A stretch of DNA of 32,000 nt. Source: Candidatus Saccharimonadota bacterium. GTDB lineage: Bacteria; Patescibacteriota; Gracilibacteria; UBA1369; 2-02-FULL-48-14. Positions 6,959 through 18,818 of this stretch are shown in pieces (within the stretch, counting starts at the first letter, position 1; each line of letters starts with the position of its first letter). The stretch lies in NCBI GenBank assembly GCA_016699145.1, contig CP064962.1:990001-1022000 (forward strand). The letters run 5' to 3'. The notes below the pieces were generated by a model that saw nothing but the letters and a program-made list of their open reading frames with translations, did not search any database and had not been told where the DNA came from. A program made the position numbers and the translations under genes.

Positions 6959-9547
6959 TTATAAAGCTGCCTGCGCCGCCGCGAGTCTCGCAACCGGTAC
7001 GCGATAAGGGCTGCAACTCACGTAGTCGAGGCCGATTTCATGGCAGAACATCACAGAGCGAGGTTCTCCCCCATGTTCGCCACAAATCCCGATTTCAAGG
7101 CCAGGCTTCGTGCCACGGCCAAGTTTAACCGCCATACGCATCAGTTGCCCAACCCCCTCTTGATCGATGGTTTCGGTGGGGTTTTCCTCCAAAATATGGT
7201 GTTCGGTGTAGAATGGCAAGAACGCACCGGCATCGTCACGGCTGAGCCCGAAGGTCATCTGGGTGAGGTCGTTGGTTCCAAAACTGAAGAAATCCGCGTG
7301 ATTCGCAATTTGATCGGCCACAATACAAGCACGAGGCAATTCAATCATGGTGCCCACCTTCCAATCGAAGTCCAAAGGTTGCATTTCAGCCGCCACTTTT
7401 TCGACGAGCGCGCGCAGTTTTTTGAGTTCATTCACATGTCCCACAAGAGGAATTTCAATCTCCACAATGGGCTTGATTCCATCGAGCACCACAGCCTTCG
7501 CAGCTTCAAAAATGGCGCGGACTTGCATCTCATAAATTTCAGGCATCGTGATGCCCAGACGACATCCGCGGTGCCCCAGCATTGGGTTGAATTCGTGCAA
7601 AGAATCCACCGTTTTCTTCAAAGCTTCAAAATCCACGCCCATCTCTTGAGCCACAGCTTTGATCTTTCCATCCGTGTTGGGCAAAAACTCGTGCAATGGG
7701 GGGTCCAGCAAACGCACGGTCACAGGGTAACCGTTCATCACACGGAAAATGCCTTTGAAATCTTCACGTTGCACAGGGAGTAGCTTGGCCAAAGGTTCCT
7801 TGCGAGCCTCGGCATCGCGAGACAAAATCATTTGTCGCACATACATAATGCGATCTTCATCAAAAAACATGTGCTCGGTACGGCAGAGTCCAATCCCTTC
7901 AGCGCCCAAACGGCGAGCCACCTCAGCATCGTGAGGTGTGTCGGCGTTGGTGCGAATTTTGAGGCGACGCACCTCATCGGCCCACTTCATAAGAGTGTCG
8001 AAGTCTTCGTCGAGAGAAGCTTCTACGGTAGGGGCCGCTCCTGCTAAAATTTCTCCCGTCGCTCCATCGAGCGTGATCACATCCCCTTCTCGAAAAAGAT
8101 TCACGCCAATCATCAGCGTCTTGGCCTTATCATCCACAATCGCATCCTTACAACCCGCAATACAAGGCTTACCCATTCCACGAGCCACCACCGCAGCGTG
8201 ACTGGTCATTCCTCCGGTTGAGGTCAAAATGCCCTGAGACGCATGCATGCCATGAATGTCTTCGGGGCTGGTCTCCTTGCGCACAAGTATCACTTTTTCG
8301 CCTTCTTCAGCCAGGCGGTAAGCTTCGTCAGCACTGAACACCACCTTCCCCACAGCCGCCCCCGGGGAGGCCGGCAAGCCACGGGCCAAAATCTCGCGTT
8401 TAAAAGCCGGATCTATGCTGGGGTGCAGCAAGGCATTCAATTGGTTAGGATCGATGCGTTTAAGGGCCTCTTTTTGCGTAATCAGCCCTTCGTTCACCAT
8501 TTCTACGGCAATACGAACCGCCGCACGAGCCGTGCGCTTACCATTGCGCGTTTGAAGCATGAAGAGTCGGCCCTTTTCAATGGTGAATTCAATGTCTTGC
8601 ATATCGCGATAATGGTTCTCAAGCAAACGTTGCACTTCGTTGAGTTGTTCAAACATGGCGGGCATTTGGTCACGCAGCGCTGAAAGTTTTTCAGGTGTAC
8701 GAATTCCGGCCACCACATCCTCTCCTTGCGCATTGCAAAGGAATTCTCCAAAAAATTCTTTTTCTCCAGTGGACGGGTTGCGGGTGAAGGCCACTCCGGT
8801 TCCACAGTCATCTCCCATGTTTCCAAACACCATGGATTGCACGTTCACGGCGCTTCCCATGTTGTGAGGCATGCCATGCAAGTTGCGATACGTGATCGCG
8901 CGCTTTCCATTCCAAGACTTGAACACCGCAATGATCGCGAGTTCCAATTGTTCACGAGGATCTTCAGGGAAAGGCCTTCCGCTGTGTTCTTGCACGATTT
9001 GCTTGAAAACGGCCACAAGACGCTTCCAGTCGGCCGCATCCATATCAGTGTCCAGTTCCACCCCCTTTTCTTTCTTAGCCGCTTCCAAGGCTGCTTCAAA
9101 ATGATCGTGCGCAATGTTTAAAACCACGTTTCCAAACATGGTCACAAAACGGCGATACGCGTCGTAAGAAAAGCGAGGATTGTCGGTTTGTTCAATCAGA
9201 GCCTCCACCGTTTGATCATTGAGTCCCAAGTTGAGAATCGTATCCATCATTCCGGGCATAGAAACCTTCGCCCCAGAGCGCACACTCACCAGCAGAGGAT
9301 TCTTGGTGTCCCCAAAACCCTTCCCCATTTTATGTTCGAGTTCGTCCATCTTTTCGTCCAGTTCGTCGTAGAAGCCTTGTGGGAAATCCCCTTTTTCCAA
9401 ATAGTAGTTGCACACCTCGGTCGTGATCGTGAATCCGAATGGAACCGGCAATCCAAGGGCGCTCATTTCAGCGAGCCCGGCGCCTTTCCCTCCAAGGAGG
9501 TCACGCATGTCTTTGTTGCCTTCGTTGAATGCATAAATGTGCTTCAT
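6959..9547 (-). CDS. ppdK: Pyruvate, phosphate dikinase
   Basis: 862 aa. The N-terminus LLGGKGAGLAEMSALGLPVPFGFTITTE, the phospho-His loop GGMTSHAAVVARGMGKPCIAG, and the PEP-utilising C-terminal barrel (GLCRTEHMF, FFSFGTNDLTQ, ICGEHGG) are all present. Confidence 0.95.
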   Translation of the reverse strand: MKHIYAFNEGNKDMRDLLGGKGAGLAEMSALGLPVPFGFTITTEVCNYYLEKGDFPQGFYDELDEKMDELEHKMGKGFGDTKNPLLVSVRSGAKVSMPGMMDTILNLGLNDQTVEALIEQTDNPRFSYDAYRRFVTMFGNVVLNIAHDHFEAALEAAKKEKGVELDTDMDAADWKRLVAVFKQIVQEHSGRPFPEDPREQLELAIIAVFKSWNGKRAITYRNLHGMPHNMGSAVNVQSMVFGNMGDDCGTGVAFTRNPSTGEKEFFGEFLCNAQGEDVVAGIRTPEKLSALRDQMPAMFEQLNEVQRLLENHYRDMQDIEFTIEKGRLFMLQTRNGKRTARAAVRIAVEMVNEGLITQKEALKRIDPNQLNALLHPSIDPAFKREILARGLPASPGAAVGKVVFSADEAYRLAEEGEKVILVRKETSPEDIHGMHASQGILTSTGGMTSHAAVVARGMGKPCIAGCKDAIVDDKAKTLMIGVNLFREGDVITLDGATGEILAGAAPTVEASLDEDFDTLMKWADEVRRLKIRTNADTPHDAEVARRLGAEGIGLCRTEHMFFDEDRIMYVRQMILSRDAEARKEPLAKLLPVQREDFKGIFRVMNGYPVTVRLLDPPLHEFLPNTDGKIKAVAQEMGVDFEALKKTVDSLHEFNPMLGHRGCRLGITMPEIYEMQVRAIFEAAKAVVLDGIKPIVEIEIPLVGHVNELKKLRALVEKVAAEMQPLDFDWKVGTMIELPRACIVADQIANHADFFSFGTNDLTQMTFGLSRDDAGAFLPFYTEHHILEENPTETIDQEGVGQLMRMAVKLGRGTKPGLEIGICGEHGGEPRSVMFCHEIGLDYVSCSPYRVPVARLAAAQAAL

Positions 9548-10871: not shown

Positions 10872-10950
10872 GGAAAAAGGTTAAAGAAATCGCAAAAAGT
10901 CTAAGACTCGCTACCTCGCCCCGCAAGACGATTTTAGATTTTTAGTAAGC

Positions 10951-11460
10951 TCAATGCTTTTTTCGAAGGACAAATCGCATCCATCTCAAAGCTTTTTGAA
11001 TCCATTGAAAGGAGCTTTTTGGCCTTTGCCGTTCATGCTGAAGTTCGGCTTGCAGACGCTCCAAAATGGTGATGAGTATCAACTTTTCTTTATGAGCCAG
11101 TTGGACAAGTTCAAAGAGCTGTCGACTGGACACCGTTTCTTTGTCCAAAGCGGTGTCTAAGGGGTGGGGAAGGGGGGTGCTTTCCAACACATAATAATCA
11201 TTCTCCAAAAAGACCTCCGGTTTAGAGCTCACTTCCTGTAAAGGCGGATACCCAGGAATTTCCACCCGTTCGATTTGCTGAATCTGCAATCGGGGAAAGC
11301 GTAGGGCCATGGAAGCCTTCGACACCGCGTATTGAAAACCCTGAGGAGTTTGAACCTGTTTGGCGCTCAATTCACCTTTTTTAATCAAACGGCGCACCGT
11401 TTGCGTCGACTTTCCCAAAAGATCAGCCGCTTCCTGAAGTGTCAATAAGCCCTCATCCAT
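10951..11460 (-). CDS. Excisionase/MerR-type helix-turn-helix DNA-binding protein
   Basis: 169 aa. The N-terminal LLTLQEAADLLGKSTQTVRRLIKKGELSAKQV matches the excisionase-family HTH pattern, and the C-terminal part looks helical or coiled-coil (LERLQAELQHERQR). A palindrome array lies immediately upstream. Confidence 0.65.
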   Translation of the reverse strand: MDEGLLTLQEAADLLGKSTQTVRRLIKKGELSAKQVQTPQGFQYAVSKASMALRFPRLQIQQIERVEIPGYPPLQEVSSKPEVFLENDYYVLESTPLPHPLDTALDKETVSSRQLFELVQLAHKEKLILITILERLQAELQHERQRPKSSFQWIQKALRWMRFVLRKKH

Positions 11461-11466
11461 TCGACT

Positions 11467-11633
11467 CGATTAGTCAAGACTTTGTATAGGCGGTTTTTGG
11501 CTTAAAGTAAAGCTAAAACAGGATATGACTAGTCAACTCGTCAGTCTTTGACTAGTCAGGATGGTCAGCTGCTCAACACCTGTTGACTAATCAAAAGTTA
11601 ATTAATCAACATTCGACTAGTCAACTAATCAAC
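11467..11633. promoter_or_regulatory. Array of about 7 copies of the 12-bp palindrome TTGACTAGTCAA and close variants
   Basis: Sites are 11467-11478 (minus-strand TTGACTAATCGA), 11525-11536 ATGACTAGTCAA, 11548-11559 TTGACTAGTCAG and 11583-11594 TTGACTAATCAA. Further sites are 11598-11609 TTAATTAATCAA, 11613-11624 TCGACTAGTCAA and 11621-11632 TCAACTAATCAA. The array lies between the divergent HTH gene (start 11460) and the membrane-protein gene (start 11781). Confidence 0.6.
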
Positions 11634-11780
11634 ATAAAAATCAAACCTGAAATTGTGCAAAACTTCTTTCCAATCCACGGCCGCCGTCTTTTTTCCTAAA
11701 ATTTCAAAAAATCCCACGTCGCCCCCTTTTTTTCCAACGTTTTTCTTTGATTTTTTTTTCGAAGTGCTAAGATAAGGCCC

Positions 11781-12332
11781 ATGGAAAACATACGCCTTTC
11801 CTGGGATCTCTTCGTACTCGTCTTCTTCGGGGTTGTCATCGCCTACAGTTTCATCATTGGGCGCAATCAAACCATCAAAATCATCATTGCTTCTTACATG
11901 GCAATTTTGACCGCTGATGGCCTCGGCAACTTATTTGAAACTTATGTGCTCCCCACCGCTCCAAGCTTGCAAGGGGAGGCGGGCCTTCAGGTATTGGTCC
12001 TGCTCAAGATTTTCGTTTTCGTGCTGACCATTGTGCTTTTAGCCATTCGCGGAGGCTTCCGAGTGGATTTGGGCCTCGAAAATTCCGTAGTGACGCGCAT
12101 CTTGGCCAACTTGAGTTTTGGTTTTTTAAATGCAGGACTCATGGTGAGCACCCTGCTGGTATACCTGACGGGGGGGTCTTTTGTGATGGGCACCGTGCAA
12201 ACCGGCTTGTCCATAAACCTCTACGCCCAATCTGAGTTCATTCAGACTATTATCGATCATTATGATGTTTGGTTTGCTCTTCCAGCTTTGGCTATAGTGC
12301 TGGTGAGTTTTTTCCAGCCCCAGGAAGAATAA
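11781..12332 (+). CDS. Multi-pass membrane protein, possibly CvpA-like
   Basis: 183 aa with four to five hydrophobic helices. The N-terminal WDLFVLVFFGVVIAYSFIIGRNQTIKIIIASYMAIL resembles the CvpA-family architecture; the assignment is weak. Confidence 0.55.
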   Translation: MENIRLSWDLFVLVFFGVVIAYSFIIGRNQTIKIIIASYMAILTADGLGNLFETYVLPTAPSLQGEAGLQVLVLLKIFVFVLTIVLLAIRGGFRVDLGLENSVVTRILANLSFGFLNAGLMVSTLLVYLTGGSFVMGTVQTGLSINLYAQSEFIQTIIDHYDVWFALPALAIVLVSFFQPQEE

Positions 12333-12397
12333 TGGACTTGCATCCAAGGACCGAGCTCCCTAAAATACGCTGGCACAGGCTCATTTGCCTTGCATGG

Positions 12398-12473
12398 GGG
12401 ACAGTAGCTCAGTCGGTAGAGCAACAGCCTTTTAAGCTGATGGTCCTGGGTTCGATTCCCAGCTGTCCCACCA
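12398..12473 (+). tRNA. tRNA-Lys (anticodon UUU), CCA encoded
   Basis: Cloverleaf folded by hand. Acceptor stem GGGACAG/CTGTCCC, D stem GCTC/GAGC, anticodon loop CTTTTAA, 5-nt variable loop, T arm CTGGG-TTCGATT-CCCAG, discriminator A, then CCA. Confidence 0.93.
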
Positions 12474-12588
12474 GATTTTGTACACCCGTTTTCCACAATT
12501 CTCGTCACTGTCCAGTGGCGAAGTGGAAGCTTCCATTTTGACTAATCAAAGGCACTTTTTCAGGTTAAAACCACCTAGACAGCCCTTC

Positions 12589-12620
12589 AAAAAAGATCCG
12601 CTTAGTTTTCCACGGATCTT
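12589..12620 (-). terminator. Intrinsic terminator of dnaJ
   Basis: The minus strand reads AAGATCCG-(12-nt loop)-CGGATCTT followed directly by TTTTGAA, giving a T6 tract that includes the stem end. It lies about 50 nt after the dnaJ stop (12668-12670). Confidence 0.6.
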
Positions 12621-12667
12621 GCACAAAAGTCGTCACTGCCTCCGGCGAATTCGACGCAAATCCAAAG

Positions 12668-13792
12668 CTAAAAAAGCCCAAAACCTTTCGTCACTTCGGT
12701 TCCGCTTTCTTTAGCGAGTTCTTCATAAAGTTCTTTTTCACGACGCGTGAGTTTTTCGGGCACTTTCAAATGGATTCTCACTTTATGGTCACCCAATTTT
12801 TCGGAGCGTAGGGAAGGGGCTCCCTTGTCTTTCAAAGTGAATTCCGTAGCACTCTGAGTTCCAGCTGGAATTTTTAAACTCACTTTTCCATGCACCGTAT
12901 CCACTTTGATGTTGGCTCCTAGTACCCCTTGCAGCATCGGAATGCTTTCTTCCGAAAACACCGTCGCGCCGTCGCGAGAAAATTTAGGATGGGGACTCAC
13001 ACGGATGTGCAAAAACAAATCGCCATAAGTTCCGCCATAGAGCCCGGCAGCTCCGCGGCCTTTCAAACGAATGGTCGTGCCGTTTTCAATTCCCTTGGGA
13101 ATGGTAACGCTGATTTCATTTTTCTTTTTGAGGCGGGTTTGCCCTTTGCATTCGCGGCACACTTGTTCAGGAATTTCCCCGCGTCCTTCACAAACCGGGC
13201 ACACCTGTACACTGCTGATTTGTCCTAAAATCGTTTGTCGGGTCATTCTCACTTGGCCCTTTCCTCCACACTGTTCACATTTTTTCACAGCGGTGTTCGG
13301 CTCGTGGCCTTGACCCCCGCAATGTTCGCAGACTTCAGGCTTGGTGATTTCCAAATGTTTGGTGGTTCCAAAAACAGCCTCTTCAAATTTAATGTCCAAT
13401 TCCGTTTCAATGTCCTTTCCTCGGCTGGGACCTTTGACCTTGCTTTCCCTACCCGAAAACCCGCCCCCTCCGAATCCTCCTCCAAAGAAATTTTCAAAGA
13501 TGTCGGCAAAGCCGTTGAAATCATTGGGATTGAAGCCCTGCCCTCCAAAACCATTAAAACCCTGTCCGCCGAAACCGGCATCGGCGCTGCCAAATTGATC
13601 ATAGCGTTGGCGTTTTTGAGCGTCCGATAGCACTTCATAGGCTTCTTGAACTTCTTTGAACTGAGCCTCTGTCGCCGTATTGCCTGGATTTTTATCGGGA
13701 TGAAGTTCTTGAGCTTTTTTTCGATAGGCCTTTTTGAGTTCCGCTTCGCTCGCATTTTTGTTCACCCCTAAAATGTCGTAGAAATTTTTCAT
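12668..13792 (-). CDS. dnaJ: Molecular chaperone DnaJ (type I Hsp40)
   Basis: 374 aa with a J domain (NFYDILGV...HPDKNP), a G/F-rich linker, and four CxxCxGxG zinc-finger repeats ([31 protein letters not shown]). Confidence 0.95.
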
Positions 13793-13817
13793 CCCCCTTA
13801 CTTTAATTTAAACTCTG

Positions 13818-13837
13818 ATTTTAGCAAGTGCTAAAAT
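13818..13837. promoter_or_regulatory. Perfect 9-2-9 palindrome ATTTTAGCA-AG-TGCTAAAAT upstream of dnaJ (candidate operator)
   Basis: It lies 26-45 nt upstream of the dnaJ ATG (13792). The arms contain the TTAGCA/TGCTAA ends of the CIRCE consensus, but the spacer is 2 nt rather than 9. A 2-nt loop cannot form an RNA hairpin, which favours a DNA-binding site. Confidence 0.45.
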
Positions 13838-14059
13838 GCCATATTAAACAAAAAAGACAAGCCAATCTCTCCTTAAGAGGAACAGTGAATTCGCCTCAAT
13901 TTTAAGCCCAAAATGGCTTTTTTAGAGCAGTTTTGAACCTGTACAGAAGACAAATGCTTTTTTGAACCTGTTCTTTTAGAGTGGACAACTTTGTCCACCT
14001 TGTCCATTAAGCCTTGAAAGAGCCAAGAAGGATGTCTAAACTTTCCGCGTATCCCCTTG

Positions 14060-14135
14060 GGTCCCATCGTCTAGGGGTCTAGGACACAGGATTCTCATTC
14101 CTGGAACCGGGGTTCAAATCCCCGTGGGATCACCA
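14060..14135 (+). tRNA. tRNA-Glu (anticodon CUC), CCA encoded
   Basis: Acceptor stem GGTCCCA/TGGGATC (one G-T pair), a D arm CGTCTAGGGGTCTAGGAC like canonical tRNA-Glu, and anticodon stem-loop CAGGA-TTCTCAT-TCCTG. It also has a 4-nt variable loop, T arm CGGGG-TTCAAAT-CCCCG, discriminator A, then CCA. Confidence 0.9.
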
Positions 14136-14471
14136 GTCAAGTAGGGAATGACTATATTGTCCTGTCAAGCAATTAGCTGAAACACCCTGTCTACTTGCCC
14201 CGTTATTATAGACAGTCGCCAAACCAAAATAAAACTCTCGCTGAATCTACGAACATTCCACTTTCCGTTCCTTGAAAAATCGCGCAAGTTAAAAAATGAA
14301 AAAGAGTTGAAGAAAAATCCTTGTATCCTTTCCTTTATATACGAATCTGTGGCTTTAATGGTCGAAGCCGCGGATAACACAGTGCTTATTCTGTATAAGT
14401 CGCTTATTCTGACCACGTGCCTCAGGGCTTTGCTCTGAAGTGCGTTTTTTATTTCAATCTAATTTTTTACT

Positions 14472-17400
14472 ATGGATATCTCTTTCGTAACACGAAAGTT
14501 CCAACGTTCCATAGCTGGTCTTGGACTCGCAGCTCTTCTTGCGACCTCTGTTTTCACAGGGTCTGCATTGGCTGTAGTCTATCCTGATGTAGACAGCCAC
14601 AGTCCCTTCGCGGACCAAATCGGTGCTTTGTCTGATGCGGGAATCATGACCGGTTATGTAAACGGAAACTTCGGAGTCGGTGACACGCTTACACGTGAAC
14701 AGGCCGCTAAAATCCTCGTTCTAGCCTTTGCTACTGAAGTTGAGACCGATGCATCAGTTACTTGCCACGGCTCTTACTCCGCTTGGGCTGAGGATTACCT
14801 CGCTACAGCTAACCTTTACGGCATCCTCGAAGGTGACGGACAGGGAAACTGTAACGCTACCGCTTCTGTAACTCGTGCTGAATTCGCTAAAATGGCAGTG
14901 AGCGCCGCTGGCCTTTCCAATGATGGAACTATGGCTAGCGACTGGTTCTCTGACGTTCAAGACGGAGCTTGGTACGATTCTTACATGGGCACCGCTGTTG
15001 CATACAGCATCATGGGAGGTTATGAAAATGGCCGCATGGGCCCTGGTGACTCTATCACCCGTGGTCAAGCTGCTAAAATGACCTACAACGCCATGAACCC
15101 CGTCTACAATCCTCCGGTTGATCCTGGAGACGATGATGATGACGACGATGATGACGATGTACCTACCGAAGGCGGAGATCTTGAGGTGATTCTTTCTGAC
15201 GAAAGTTCTGAAGACTACACTTACTTCGCAGCAGGAACCAACGCTGAAGTTGCAGTATTCGAAGTTACGGCTTCTGACGAAGACGTACTCATTACTTCCT
15301 TCGCAGTGGAACTTGCTTCCGGAGACGCCGACTCTATCGTGGCTCTTGCTCTCTACAACGAAGAAGGAACTCGTATTTCTCGAGTGGACACTTCTATCGA
15401 CAGCGACGACATTGCTCGCATGACCATGCTTGAAGGAGGCTACACGGTTGAAGCTGGAACTTCTGAATTGTTCCGCCTCGTGAACACCTTCGACACCATT
15501 GTTGGGGGCGCCAATACCTCTACTCTCTACAGCTACGCTTTCGACTCTTCTATGATCGAATCCAATGCTGGAGCAGTAGAAGTTGAAAACGACCTCGTTA
15601 CGGGAATCTTCGGTCTTCTCGATGAGGACACTGGAGAACTTGCCGTAGACGACGGTGGAACTCTCTCTAGCATTCAAGTTGGAGAAACCAATGCAGTCAT
15701 CGCTTCCTTTGAATTGGAAGAGACCAGCAGCGACAAGGACGTATGGCTCTGGGGTATCAGTCTTGAGAACACCGGAACCGCTAACCTTGAAGATGCAGTG
15801 ACCGATCTCGCCCTTTACTGGGATGGAGACTGGGTGGCTGACGGTACTCAATATGGAGAATACATCTCTTTCCAAATGGATGAAGAGACGGCTCCAATGA
15901 TTGAAGCTGGAACCAACGAAGAATTCGAAATCCAAGCTAAGATCATCGGTGAATCCACCGAAGACGTGATTTTCAACGTTGAAGAAGCTCTCGATGTGCT
16001 CGCTAGCGACGAAGACGACAACAACGTTGCCGTTAACGTCAGCGCTTACGCAGGAACCACTGTTGAAATTGAAGCAGGTGCTGTATCCGTTGTTGGATAC
16101 GACGCCGTCTCCGACAAGTTCCGCCCTGATCGTCAGGATGTCGAACTTGGACGCTTCGAAGTCACTCCCGGAACCGATGGTCTCGAACTTGAAACCCTCA
16201 ACATTGACTTCGACATCACTTTAGGTTCCAACACTGGAACATGGTATGTTTCCGATCTCTTTGAGAACTTTGCTGTAGAGTTGAACGGAACCAACTATTC
16301 CATGGACCTCAATGGTGCTGAAGGAACGGGTGAAGAATACACCGTTGATTTGGACAGAACCCTCACTGAAGGAACTGTCTACGAATTCGTTGTAATGGCA
16401 GACACTTTCTCCACTACTGAAGCCGACGCCAATGGAGGAGTGATCGTGGATTACACGACCTTCACCATGGACATGGCTCTTGAAAACCTCGGAGATGGAC
16501 TTTCTACAGACGGTCTCGTTCTCAGCGAAGTTGCTGACAACAACCCCGTTACTGATGTGACGCCTTCTACCGTATCCTTCAGTCAACTTGAAGGAGAAAC
16601 GGCTGGAGTGGCCATCAACGTGGTATCCATCTCTTCTGCTCGTAGCGTTGTAGTAGGAACCGAAGACGTTCTTGCTATGGAATTCGAAGTAGAAGAAGAA
16701 GCAGACGTTTCTGACCTCATCTTCTCTCAAGTAGCTATCGAAGAAGCATCTGGAACAGGTACCTTTGACAACACTGAAGTGAGTCAAGTATCGCTTTACC
16801 AAGTGAACTCTGACGATTCAGAAATTTTGCTCGACGCTGTGTCTGGAAGCCAACTCGCTTCCAACACCGCTGACTTCGATGACTTCGAAGTGATCATTGC
16901 TTCTGGAACCACGGAAACCTTCCGTGTCTACATCGACTTCGTTGATGATGACGCCAATGCTGCTCTCACTTTCGTTGCTGCCATCACTACCTACGATGTA
17001 GAAGATGATGACAATAACCAAGTCTACGATGCAGACGACACCAGCGCTGATGGAGACTTCAACTCTGAAGGGGATCAACCCACTTCTGCTCGTACCATCA
17101 CTCTCGTAGCTTCTGGTATTCTCTACGTTGAAATGGATAACGAAGACAACACCTACGACACTGCGAACCGTCGTTGGATCCAAATGGGTGAAGATGACGA
17201 AGGTCTCGCCGCCCTCGCTCTTCGTGCTGATAACGAAGATGTGACTCTGGAAGAATGGAAATTGATTCTCAACAGCACTGCTTCAACTGCAGTTACTGGT
17301 GACGCCGACGTTACTGCGGCAACTGCACTTGCATTGCCCACTGCTGTCGCTGGACAGTTGAAGAAGACCGGTGCCGCTGGTACCGCCTTCATCCCTGGAA

Positions 17401-18818
17401 CCGACGGTGCTTACACCGACGTGGACAATGATGGAACCGTAACTGCAGGGGACATCCGTCTCGTTGCAGGAGGAACCATTGCCAACGGTTACGGTTACGC
17501 CAACGGAACCACCGTTGCTGCTGGAGACACTGATCTCACAACTGCACTTGCATTACCCACTTCTATCGTTGGTCAATTGCGCAAGACGGGTGCTGCTGGT
17601 ACTGCCTTCGTGGTTGGAACCGATGCTGCTTACCTCGACGTTAATAACGATGGAACCGTAACTGCAGGGGACATCCGTATTGTTGAAGGAAGCACGGCTG
17701 CAACTGGACTTGATAAGCTCGGAAACCTTTCCGATGTCTTCTCAGATATCAGTATCTACAACGAAGACGGAGTCCTCGTTGGGACGAAGAGCCTCTCGAA
17801 CCAAACCAACATGATTTTGTTCGACTCTACTTCAACGGAATTGTCCGCTATGGTAGACACCACCACCACGTACTACATCACTGGAGATCTCAACAACTAC
17901 GGTGAAAACTACGTTGGTAACCTCTACTCCACTCCGACAGTGGGGGTAGGTTCAGCTCTTAGTACTAACCTCTCAACCGTAACAGCAGGATTCCAGGCCA
18001 ACCTTGGATGGACCGTCACTGCCGTTGAGGCAACTGGAGACTCCTCCAATGCAGCCCTCGACGAAAATGGAAACGGAGACAGTACTGAAGCTGCTGGAGA
18101 AGTCGCTTACGGTTCTACCACTTCTGGTAGCCGTGCAGACGATGACGCTACACCTTTCACAAGCACTTCTGAACTCTTCGGTTACATTGCTTCTGAACTC
18201 ATCGAAGTTGAACTCTTAGAAGAAGCAGAAGGAGTAAGCGTCTCTTCCGATCTCGGTACCGGAACGATGAACCTTGGAATTGTGGCTATCACCAACAATT
18301 CTACAGAAAACATCGAAGCTGATGGAACCGATCTCAAGACTCAACTCGAAAGCATTGCTTTCCAAGTCAACAAAAACACCGACTTAGTTATTGATACCCT
18401 GACCATCGAGCGTATCGGTGGAGTTGGCTCCACTGTTGCCGGAAATGTTGTATTGAACTCGAACCAAGCTGCTGCTACCAGCGCAAGTGCCCTCTCCGCA
18501 GGCGAGACCAACACAACTGTGCTTAGATTCTTGGACCTTGACGGCAGCGCCGGTTTTGGCACGGACGATGAAATAGCTCCTGGTGAAACTGCTTACTACC
18601 TTGTACAAGGTAACGTAACCGCTTTGGGCGCCGGTGCTTCCGATGACTTCATTGAGCTTTCAATGGAAGATCTCATGGACACCTCAACTAGCCAAAATAG
18701 TGGAGATGGTAACGTACACTGGTACGACAGTTTGACCACTGGGGTTACTCAGCGCTCTGCTGTTTACATGGGAAGTACCACCGACATCGATGCCGTTCGT
18801 GTTGCTGAAATTGACTAA
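14472..18818 (+). CDS. Secreted, highly acidic SLH-domain surface (S-layer-like) protein, 1448 aa
   Basis: A signal peptide (ends GSALA/VVYPD) is followed by three S-layer-homology repeats (about nt 14577-15117), including FADQIGALSDAGIMTGYVNGNFGVGDTLTREQAAKIL, YLATANLYGILEG...VTRAEFAKMAV and YMGTAVAYSIMGGYENGRMGPGDSITRGQAAKM. A D10 linker (15129-15158) leads to about 1200 aa of D/E/T/S/G-rich repetitive modules. A strong terminator lies right after the stop. Confidence 0.85.
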   Translation: MDISFVTRKFQRSIAGLGLAALLATSVFTGSALAVVYPDVDSHSPFADQIGALSDAGIMTGYVNGNFGVGDTLTREQAAKILVLAFATEVETDASVTCHGSYSAWAEDYLATANLYGILEGDGQGNCNATASVTRAEFAKMAVSAAGLSNDGTMASDWFSDVQDGAWYDSYMGTAVAYSIMGGYENGRMGPGDSITRGQAAKMTYNAMNPVYNPPVDPGDDDDDDDDDDVPTEGGDLEVILSDESSEDYTYFAAGTNAEVAVFEVTASDEDVLITSFAVELASGDADSIVALALYNEEGTRISRVDTSIDSDDIARMTMLEGGYTVEAGTSELFRLVNTFDTIVGGANTSTLYSYAFDSSMIESNAGAVEVENDLVTGIFGLLDEDTGELAVDDGGTLSSIQVGETNAVIASFELEETSSDKDVWLWGISLENTGTANLEDAVTDLALYWDGDWVADGTQYGEYISFQMDEETAPMIEAGTNEEFEIQAKIIGESTEDVIFNVEEALDVLASDEDDNNVAVNVSAYAGTTVEIEAGAVSVVGYDAVSDKFRPDRQDVELGRFEVTPGTDGLELETLNIDFDITLGSNTGTWYVSDLFENFAVELNGTNYSMDLNGAEGTGEEYTVDLDRTLTEGTVYEFVVMADTFSTTEADANGGVIVDYTTFTMDMALENLGDGLSTDGLVLSEVADNNPVTDVTPSTVSFSQLEGETAGVAINVVSISSARSVVVGTEDVLAMEFEVEEEADVSDLIFSQVAIEEASGTGTFDNTEVSQVSLYQVNSDDSEILLDAVSGSQLASNTADFDDFEVIIASGTTETFRVYIDFVDDDANAALTFVAAITTYDVEDDDNNQVYDADDTSADGDFNSEGDQPTSARTITLVASGILYVEMDNEDNTYDTANRRWIQMGEDDEGLAALALRADNEDVTLEEWKLILNSTASTAVTGDADVTAATALALPTAVAGQLKKTGAAGTAFIPGTDGAYTDVDNDGTVTAGDIRLVAGGTIANGYGYANGTTVAAGDTDLTTALALPTSIVGQLRKTGAAGTAFVVGTDAAYLDVNNDGTVTAGDIRIVEGSTAATGLDKLGNLSDVFSDISIYNEDGVLVGTKSLSNQTNMILFDSTSTELSAMVDTTTTYYITGDLNNYGENYVGNLYSTPTVGVGSALSTNLSTVTAGFQANLGWTVTAVEATGDSSNAALDENGNGDSTEAAGEVAYGSTTSGSRADDDATPFTSTSELFGYIASELIEVELLEEAEGVSVSSDLGTGTMNLGIVAITNNSTENIEADGTDLKTQLESIAFQVNKNTDLVIDTLTIERIGGVGSTVAGNVVLNSNQAAATSASALSAGETNTTVLRFLDLDGSAGFGTDDEIAPGETAYYLVQGNVTALGAGASDDFIELSMEDLMDTSTSQNSGDGNVHWYDSLTTGVTQRSAVYMGSTTDIDAVRVAEID
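17298..17700 (+). repeat. Intragenic tandem duplication (219/225-nt units) encoding Ca-loop-like DxDNDGTVTAGD modules
   Basis: Unit 1 is GDADVTAATALALPTAVAGQLKKTGAAGTAFIPGTDGAYTDVDNDGTVTAGDIRLV. Unit 2 is GDTDLTTALALPTSIVGQLRKTGAAGTAFVVGTDAAYLDVNNDGTVTAGDIRIV. The 30-nt stretch gatggaaccgtaactgcaggggacatccgt is identical at 17430-17459 and 17649-17678. Confidence 0.85.

Follow-up and report, generated by a model that had tools for sequence, protein, structure and literature searches.

P2 Cox and Pukovnik Xis act cooperatively through several closely placed sites, and Cox also represses a promoter. Auxiliary operators are found inside coding sequences as well, as with lac O2 in lacZ, gal OI in galE and the operators of purR within its own gene, where PurR binds in the coding region downstream of its own start; multiple operators of this sort, including those within open reading frames, result in cooperative repression by looping or by a roadblock. 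BldC of Streptomyces, a MerR-like protein of 68 residues, is a chromosomal regulator that forms cooperative multimers, arranged head to tail, on variable numbers of adjacent direct repeats (PMC5859096). RacA, RicO and RocS are proteins of Firmicutes that anchor the chromosome. In RacA a divergent and disordered linker, 40-60 residues long, connects a winged helix-turn-helix (wHTH) to a coiled coil, and the ram site of RacA, TGACGCCGGCGTCA, is a clustered palindrome (PMC4914108). RicO and RocS carry a C-terminal membrane-binding amphipathic helix (bioRxiv 10.64898/2026.03.06.710092), and the sites of RacA and RicO are spread over 600-700 kb around oriC (PMC4914108; bioRxiv 10.64898/2026.03.06.710092).

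The locus we describe here lies within a stretch of 32,000 nucleotides, referred to as the window (the whole stretch of DNA that was analysed), on a chromosomal contig of 1.34 Mb from a Candidatus Peribacteria (CPR) bacterium. It comprises an array of palindromes upstream of a gene for a small HTH protein:

10951 to 11460, minus strand: gene of the presumed binder, 169 aa, with an HTH_17 winged helix, a linker and a coiled coil

The original prediction took this product for an excisionase-type wHTH protein with a helical C terminus. The protein scores 35.8 bits against Pfam HTH_17 (PF12728; cut-off 27) and 29.5 bits against TIGR01764, "excisionase family DNA-binding protein" (cut-off 28.8), and an AlphaFold2 model places a winged helix at residues 1-63 (pLDDT above 90 at about residues 11-50), disorder at 64-103, a coiled-coil helix at 107-145 and a basic, aromatic C-terminal helix at 150-168. 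In Foldseek the N-terminal domain pairs with Pukovnik Xis (4j2n), P2 Cox (4lhf) and BldC (6ama, 6amk), each at probability 1.0. Xis and Cox are its best matches in both sequence and structure, with target TM-scores of 0.54-0.76 and sequence matches at E 4e-5 (4lhf) and E 0.003 (4j2n); with BldC it has the winged-helix fold in common (6ama, 6amk). The relatives of the protein were collected by a word-indexed search, which gave 30, and by an exhaustive profile search, which gave 39 cluster representatives at E <= 1e-30 and about 57 full-length ones. The putative DNA-contacting residues K17, S18, Q20, T21, R23, R24, T38, Q40, G41, F42 and Y44 are invariant in 30 homologues, and the family alignment shows an invariant N-terminal stretch of 45 residues (GKSTQTVRR...TPQGFQY), a linker variable in both length and sequence, and a conserved C-terminal helix (HKEKxMLITILERLQAEL). 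When the family profile was run against species-representative genomes it returned 15 loci, 13 of them in MAGs annotated as Candidatus Peribacteria and the others labelled Gracilibacteria and Oceanicoccus; in this analysis the family turned up in no organisms other than Candidatus Peribacteria and close relatives.

The full-length protein differs from each of these structural relatives. Cox and Xis are proteins of 56-91 aa that lack a linker and a coiled coil, bind directional repeats, have an integrase partner and belong to a mobile element, whereas the protein described here ends in a coiled coil, its presumed sites are palindromic, the context is chromosomal and housekeeping, and no recombinase was found among the window ORFs scanned. 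BldC also lacks a coiled coil, and the 169-aa protein has both a linker and a coiled coil, together with an inverted-repeat motif. Classical MerR activators belong to the same winged-helix superfamily and likewise combine a coiled-coil dimerisation helix with a palindromic operator. The MerR profile PF00376 gives the 169-aa protein 16.1 bits (E 0.0099), below its cut-off of 28.2, and, unlike MerR, the family has a disordered linker of 40-90 residues between the DNA-binding domain and the coil and has no effector domain. In its order of a MerR-type wHTH, a disordered variable region and a coiled coil, the protein resembles RacA, RicO and RocS. We note that this layout is also compatible with a role like that of these proteins, which are non-transcriptional DNA organisers, and to that extent it counts against a transcriptional role.

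The genes around the locus are those of a housekeeping neighbourhood. The window encodes ppdK, gdh, dnaJ, metK, ahcY, glycosyltransferases, NAD kinase and lspA, as well as a 1448-aa SLH-domain protein, tRNA-Lys and tRNA-Glu, and across the class the gene order SLH protein, tRNA-Glu, dnaJ, tRNA-Lys, membrane protein, HTH gene, gdh is kept. The membrane protein is encoded divergently from the HTH gene:

11781 to 12332, plus strand: gene of a conserved, polytopic membrane protein of 183 aa with no Pfam family

In the distant locus L016 this protein is 68% identical to that of the window, as against only about 30% for the HTH protein, and its gene is a possible second target or partner. The proximity of a tRNA gene bears on the idea that the palindromes are excisionase or RDF sites belonging to a mobile element, integrated or decayed, at tRNA-Lys, which lies 0.9 kb away and has one site just 3' of it. 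The matches to TIGR01764 and to PHROG excisionase families, and the fact that the nearest structures are Xis and Cox, would fit such an origin. We nevertheless regard it as very improbable, as no integrase or recombinase family was matched among the window ORFs scanned, the syntenic order of housekeeping genes is conserved across the class (17 loci), and the sites are palindromic, not the directional repeats typical of Xis, Cox and RDFs, for a protein that has a coiled coil in addition. The search for phage or defence context gave only weak matches, of the HTH part to excisionase PHROGs and to PADLOC mad1. A known RNA element was likewise considered and rejected, Rfam returning only the two tRNAs over 10900-14500, and so was a conserved hairpin, of the leader or terminator type, in the interval that separates the array from the membrane-protein gene, such a hairpin being strong in L002 and L005 and absent from the window and from L001.

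The array itself was predicted to hold seven copies or near-copies of one 12-letter palindrome, TTGACTAGTCAA (motif P1), in about 170 bp, with one copy beside the HTH start codon and two overlapping each other. We find five copies with at most 2 mismatches and two with 3, all within 11466-11632; a further site lies outside the array:

11466 to 11477: P1 site O1, TTGACTAATCGA on the gene strand, at -17 to -6 from the ATG at 11460; 2 mismatches
11525 to 11536: P1 site O2, ATGACTAGTCAA, at most 2 mismatches; no other site of the array is as widely conserved
11548 to 11559: P1 site O3, TTGACTAGTCAG, 23 bp from O2; at most 2 mismatches
11583 to 11594: P1 site O4, TTGACTAATCAA, 35 bp from O3; at most 2 mismatches; first of a tightly packed distal block
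11598 to 11609: degenerate P1-like site O5, TTAATTAATCAA, 15 bp from O4; 3 mismatches
11613 to 11624: P1 site O6, TCGACTAGTCAA, 15 bp from O5; at most 2 mismatches
11621 to 11632: degenerate P1-like site O7, TCAACTAATCAA, sharing 4 bp with O6; 3 mismatches
12538 to 12549: lone P1 site, TTGACTAATCAA, flanked by the 3' ends of tRNA-Lys and dnaJ and some 1.09 kb upstream from the HTH gene

Counted at up to 2 mismatches over the 32 kb, TTGACTAGTCAA has six matches (starts 11466, 11525, 11548, 11583, 11613 and 12538), five of them falling inside about 160 bp. The motif is enriched in the window, since 100 dinucleotide shuffles gave 1.29 +/- 1.27 matches and none reached six. Allowing 3 mismatches adds the two copies at 11598 and 11621 within the array; at that stringency the count over the whole window, 17 against 13.5 by chance, is not above chance, and we therefore accept these two sites only on their position and their conservation in orthologues. 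O5 falls within an 18-bp imperfect palindrome whose consensus in group A, one of the two groups of loci, is ATGTTGATTAATTAACAT, and O6 and O7 together amount to about one and a half sites, for which group A keeps the consensus TTGATTAGTTAACTAGTCGA. The distal block of the window has four sites (O4-O7) spaced by 8-15 bp, at about -112 to -150, and is kept in group A.

To ask how the array is conserved we examined about 10 kb on either side of the HTH gene in 17 loci, the window and 16 others. An array of the palindrome lies upstream of the HTH gene in 17 of 17, including loci in which the HTH protein is only 30-40% identical. At up to 1 mismatch there are 49 sites in four small zones round the gene (27.6 kb in total) and none in the other 253 kb; 25 of the 49 are within 300 bp upstream of the HTH gene, 11 inside it, five at -1.0 to -1.3 kb, among them the orthologue of the window site at 12538, and eight upstream of dnaJ, in distant loci only. 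Every site seen in these intervals is 3.5 kb or less from the HTH gene; a wider spread over the genome, beyond them, is conceivable and would count against a purely local role. Most group A loci, and some others, have a counterpart of the site at 12538, at -1.05 to -1.17 kb. The dnaJ-proximal arrays of distant loci raised the idea of an HspR-like heat-shock regulon, which was not retained. No palindrome site was found upstream of the window's own dnaJ. The palindrome differs from the HAIR element, and none of the fetched loci contains dnaK, groEL, clpB or grpE.

Across sites the consensus is t-TTGA(C/T)TA(G/A)TC(A/G)(A/G)-a, and positions 5 and 8 covary symmetrically, C5/G8 being exchanged for T5/A8 with the palindrome kept (odds ratio 4.8, p = 0.002, a value that overstates the independence of sites that are phylogenetically related). 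The outer TGAC/GTCA arms are also found in the ram site of RacA, TGACGCCGGCGTCA. The half-site centres of the 12-bp palindrome are closer together than in typical operators of HTH dimers, an observation that counts against an operator role. A literature search found the 12-mer in no relevant paper. When metagenomes were scanned for sites in pairs, TTGACTAGTCN{2,32}TTGACTAGTC, at least 120 loci were obtained; of the loci listed, none encodes a family member and none is Peribacteria-like. They are unrelated repeats, for example a repeat family of about 75 bp in sediment metagenomes and several tandem arrays, and are therefore uninformative on other targets.

In most relatives the palindrome is also found within the HTH gene, with one or two copies in the part that encodes the linker, 21 bp apart when there are two. 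These intragenic palindromes are always coded TTG-ACT-AGT/AAT-CAA (Leu-Thr-Ser/Asn-Gln), operator codons that codon usage predicts in only 0.8-4.7% of cases, and the only LTSQ or LISQ peptides found in other long ORFs use different codons. Linker tetrapeptides of this kind are present in 59 of 77 family members, often as two spaced by 7 residues (21 bp). In addition, S[PT]I[QH] peptides occur in 29 members, in most cases roughly 15-25 residues upstream; in the loci whose DNA was examined they are encoded by TCGCCTATACAA (Ser-Pro-Ile-Gln). The LT[SN]Q and SPIQ peptides are the only conserved islands in an otherwise drifting, disordered linker, and since the linker palindromes are invariably in operator codons, the DNA is selected as DNA. 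The window's own HTH gene is without intragenic palindromes and has lost these operators; it does have a degenerate copy of a second motif, P2 (CGCCTATACA):

11237 to 11246, minus strand: CGCCTTTACA, a degenerate P2 copy within the gene, where the linker is encoded, close to the position of TCGCCTATACAA in orthologues

The sites are, then, genuine, tightly local, co-conserved with the HTH gene and under selection at the DNA level. Intragenic operators are also features of the lac, gal and purR systems; compared with these, the intragenic operators here are family-wide and would dictate the only conserved peptides of the linker.

Between O1 and O2 is a block that is nearly invariant in the alignments and that would be the promoter of the HTH gene:

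11483 to 11513, minus strand: promoter-like block CCTTTACT-TTAAGCC-N-CGCCTATACA
11506 to 11511, minus strand: -35-like TTTACT, with a 17-nt spacer to the -10-like TATACA at 11483-11488
11483 to 11492, minus strand: motif P2, CGCCTATACA, within the promoter-like block

In the aligned loci the block reads CCTTTAC(T/A)nTAAGCCnnnnnTCGCCTATACA, that is, a -35-like TTTACW, a 17-nt spacer and a -10-like TATACA. A sigma-70 scan returned no promoter in the window's intergenic region, because TATACA is without the conserved final T. The locus alignments show that the register of the palindromes is fixed relative to this block. The end of O2 is 13 nt upstream of the -35-like hexamer and its centre is at about -54.5 from the predicted start, and the 13-nt gap between an O2-type site and the conserved CCTTTAC... 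is seen in most aligned loci, of both groups. Most aligned loci have this -35-adjacent site, a next site 22-23 bp further on (the commonest distance between neighbours across loci, with nine pairs) and another 34-35 bp beyond, a spacing that is also repeated across loci. O1 begins 5 nt downstream of the -10-like hexamer, lies over the predicted transcription start and ends 5 nt before the ATG; it has a counterpart in the closest orthologue, L001, and none at that position in more distant loci. Whereas MerR operators lie within a 19-20 bp spacer between the -35 and -10 elements, the spacer here contains no palindrome, and the sites are upstream of the -35 and downstream of the -10.

The original prediction offered as an alternative that there is no specific element and that the TTGACT cores are only -35-like hexamers, or chance, in an AT-rich divergent promoter. 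TTGACT matches five of the six positions of the -35 consensus, and in the two distant loci that were scanned for this, L012 and L016, the sigma-70 scan reports a canonical pair in which one half-site, TTGAYT, serves as a -35 with TACAAT as a -10 and a spacer of 16-17 nt, the TACAAT falling inside a CGCCTATACAAT element; a bound dimer would occlude this promoter pair. Hexamers alone would not, however, make a true palindrome with compensatory changes, at positions kept over deep divergence and with conservation at the level of codons inside an ORF, and none of the shuffles reaches the observed count. We consider this alternative barely conceivable.

Two further kinds of element are concentrated at the locus. 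The motif AATTCGCCTATACAA has 66 copies in the zones round the gene and nine weak ones elsewhere, which makes it as locus-specific as the palindrome, and in some loci it forms tandem arrays with a period of 11-12 bp. DnaA-box-like elements (TTWTNCACA) number 46 in the zones, about 7-fold more than the 6.7 +/- 2.7 expected from composition, with 16 in 230 kb outside; at orthologous positions they swap among TTATCCACA, TTTTCCACA and TTTTGCACA. Over the window alone their count is not significant. The window has the following:

11654 to 11662, minus strand: DnaA-box-like TTTTGCACA, within a conserved block GTTTTGCACAATTTCAGGTT, 22 bp beyond O7
12489 to 12497, plus strand: DnaA-box-like TTTTCCACA, 41 bp from the site at 12538

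The presence of a second locus-specific motif and of DnaA-box-like elements suggests that more than one factor or binding mode is at work at the locus, a point against the operator reading. The dense repeats, the DnaA-box-like elements (with the canonical TTATCCACA in four orthologues) and the divergent transcription might be taken to indicate a replication origin, an iteron cluster or a partition centromere, and a likeness to iterons or partition sites was indeed part of the original prediction. The evidence speaks against this in several ways. The locus is chromosomal and syntenic, no match to ParA/ParB, Rep or integrase families was obtained among the 24 larger window ORFs scanned, and dnaA, dnaN, rep and parAB are not found nearby among the scanned ORFs of the window. 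The repeats are inverted and not direct, and each sub-cluster has only 1-3 DnaA-box-like elements. The GC skew is negative throughout the window, and, read on the HTH strand, the skew does not change sign from one side of the locus to the other, either here or in 8 of 10 orthologous loci; an oriC or a terminus was rejected on these grounds. An origin, iteron cluster or centromere is thus highly improbable, and the iteron or partition likeness is not supported. The density of the sites does suggest cooperative multi-site assembly, by analogy with Pukovnik Xis, P2 Cox and BldC, all of which work in this way.

It is also conceivable that the palindromes are bound by a protein encoded elsewhere, such as a global regulator or a DnaA-associated factor, and that the HTH gene is its target. 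At least three distinct locus-specific motifs coexist, so that one is probably read by another factor. Nevertheless, gene and motif occur together in 17 of 17 loci, the motif lies within the gene's own coding sequence family-wide and is absent from 253 kb of other DNA, and no further DNA-binding protein was found among the conserved neighbours when the window and two orthologous loci were scanned. We consider such a binder quite unlikely. The adjacent HTH protein, which the original prediction called the obvious binder, appears to be the most plausible candidate, in view of its co-occurrence with the motif and the absence of the motif from the flanks, and the array most likely represents its docking sites.

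We think it probable that 11466-11632 is a multi-operator region whose predicted binder, the product of 10951-11460 on the minus strand, autoregulates its own promoter. Since the sites lie at fixed distances from a conserved promoter-like block, the plainest reading is that of an unusually elaborate autoregulatory operator region. It is the binding of the protein to the sites, the location of the promoter and the regulatory outcome that we infer. Two winged helices joined by the coiled coil would bind the 12-14 bp palindrome tTTGAYTARTCAAa, and the -35-adjacent site, its neighbour two helical turns away and the packed distal block would be occupied cooperatively, with the occupancy of the array setting the transcription of the HTH gene itself. 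The divergent membrane-protein gene may also be affected, and the array may be bridged to the lone site at 12538. Because O1 lies across the predicted transcription start, high levels of the protein would be expected to repress, and so shut, the promoter in this genome; in most relatives the intragenic pair of sites might contribute looping or a roadblock. The isolated site at 1.09 kb and the dnaJ-proximal arrays of distant relatives might reflect either a small local regulon or bridging between sites.

A different function is suggested by the likeness to RacA, RicO and RocS, namely that the palindromes join with the DnaA-box-like elements to make up a hub, centromere-like or DnaA-regulating, which would be compacted or anchored at the membrane, with effects on transcription secondary. 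Several features would fit: the layout is like RacA's wHTH, disordered linker and coiled coil, and the RacA site is also a clustered palindrome; the conserved membrane protein is always encoded divergently; the DnaA-box-like 9-mers are enriched at the locus to the extent given above; and the distal sites, 8-15 bp apart, are spaced as for a continuous protein coat. The family's C-terminal tails are amphipathic as well as basic and aromatic, and their peak hydrophobic moment has a median of 0.58 (the membrane-targeting sequences of MinD and FtsA have 0.38-0.78), as might be expected if they corresponded to the membrane-binding helix of RicO and RocS, although this argument is one of sequence composition only and what AlphaFold models with confidence is a helix. 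However, the family profile found no RacA chain in the PDB, with no RacA similarity at E <= 10, RacA is not among the best 50 Foldseek matches, and there is no switch of GC skew at the locus. Moreover, all sites seen here are close to the gene and keep a fixed register with a promoter-like block, whereas those of RacA and RicO extend over hundreds of kb. We regard an analogue of RacA, RicO or RocS as rather unlikely. The more specific version, in which the protein is the candidate-phyla counterpart of these organisers and covers, with its winged helices, a conserved hub some 3.5 kb in size that comprises the palindromes, CGCCTATACA and the DnaA-box-like sites round dnaJ, tRNA-Lys and its own gene and is tethered to the membrane through the C-terminal amphipathic helix or the divergent membrane protein, is unlikely. 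If it were true, the hub could modulate the availability of DnaA in the manner of datA or DARS, the operator-coding linker would be part of the hub itself, and the organiser would offer a first way into how chromosomes are organised in these minimal cells.

Gene regulation in CPR bacteria is almost unknown, and none of the Peribacteria has been cultivated. Judged by its sequence conservation, the array together with its probable regulator, acting as an autoregulatory system, would be a conserved and previously undescribed candidate regulator-operator pair of a CPR lineage, with the unusual feature that, in most relatives and not in the window, the regulator gene itself appears to encode its putative binding sites. 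With a sharp motif, an architecture that is class-wide and a small, expressible protein, the locus offers a regulator-operator pair that can be tested. It also provides an unusually clear case of selection at the DNA level shaping a protein, in that the linker peptides exist because the DNA carries the motifs of the promoter region.

Beside the palindrome array, the HTH locus carries further short elements, which in the window lie as follows:

11483-11492 and 11237-11246, the second motif, AATTCGCCTATACAA
11654-11662 (-) and 12489-12497 (+), DnaA-box-like 9-mers, TTWTNCACA
11644-11653, 12559-12567, 13931-13942 and 13960-13971, the motif ACAGGTT(A/C)AA (AACCTGT on the other strand)
12504-12536, two short palindromes, CACTGTCCAGTG and TGGAAGCTTCCA, just 3' of tRNA-Lys

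Across the loci, AATTCGCCTATACAA is found in 66 copies near the HTH gene as against 9 weak matches elsewhere; its locus specificity equals that of the palindrome. The motif overlaps a -10-like hexamer, and in the orthologous locus L010 (about 8505-8540) it forms tandem arrays with a period of 11-12 bp. Its intragenic copies correspond to Ser-Pro-Ile-Gln codons of the HTH ORF.

The TTWTNCACA 9-mers sit beside palindromes at positions that are conserved among the orthologues, are about 7-fold more frequent across the loci than composition would lead one to expect, and in four orthologues include the canonical TTATCCACA. Since GC skew indicates that the HTH locus is not oriC, these 9-mers could represent a non-origin cluster of DnaA boxes or, alternatively, be bound by a different factor. 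ACAGGTT(A/C)AA adjoins the DnaA-box-like element that lies upstream of the HTH gene; of the further copies of this motif, one lies beside the isolated palindrome site at 12538 and two lie upstream of dnaJ. The 12538 site is also immediately preceded by CACTGTCCAGTG and TGGAAGCTTCCA, and the closer orthologues keep this stretch.

Matches to paired palindrome sites on metagenome contigs include a repeat family of about 75 bp, in which TTGACTAGTCAA is followed by an A/T spacer and CTGACTAGTCAA, with TTGACTGGTCAA and TTGACCAGTCAA as variants among the matches listed. The repeats are carried by these contigs:

L027, L031-L034, L040, L051, L053, L060, L063, L072 and L075
further, L113, L115, L117, L122, L124, L126 and L137

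In sediment metagenomes they form arrays, at times adjoining a conserved non-coding segment, and among the matches listed no homologue of the HTH protein was found on the contigs that carry them. This family is unrelated to the palindrome array of the HTH gene.

Genes near the regulator have promoter-like elements of their own, and some relatives have hairpins at the locus:

11764-11783, promoter-like elements of the membrane-protein gene
12338-12366, promoter-like elements of tRNA-Lys
13793-13830, promoter-like elements of dnaJ
L002 4739-4766 (-) and L005 about 9500-9530 (-), orthologous loci, a strong 12-bp hairpin followed by a T run

The putative tRNA-Lys promoter is a textbook one (TTGCAT, 17 nt, TAAAAT). 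For the membrane-protein gene and dnaJ, the -10-like hexamers (TAAGAT and TAAAGT, respectively) lie exactly 7 nt upstream of the ATG, with no Shine-Dalgarno spacing, and this arrangement suggests that leaderless mRNAs may occur in the Peribacteria lineage. The hairpins of L002 and L005 are located in the stretch that separates the array from the divergent membrane-protein gene, and they are directed towards this gene; neither the window nor the orthologous locus L001 has such a hairpin with a T run.

Further features of the window concern the membrane protein itself and the SLH-protein gene:

11781-12332 (+), divergent membrane protein, 183 aa
14136-14471, region of conserved short motifs between tRNA-Glu and the SLH-protein gene
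14472-18818 (+), SLH protein, 1448 aa

The 183-aa protein, which has no Pfam family, is a lineage-specific membrane protein; its conservation far exceeds the regulator's (68% as against about 30% identity in the same orthologous locus), and it is probably important. The region upstream of the SLH-protein gene, together with its orthologous regions, contains TTGACAGGACAA, GTCTAC/GTAGAC inverted repeats and two copies of GCTTATTCTG, a set of motifs that differs from the set at the HTH gene and apparently forms a regulatory module of its own. Most loci have a large ORF at the position of the SLH-protein gene, with SLH domains recorded in L002. Three SLH domains lie at the N-terminus of the 1448-aa protein, which also contains an Asp run and a dockerin-like segment; in these CPR cells it is probably the S-layer or cell-surface protein.
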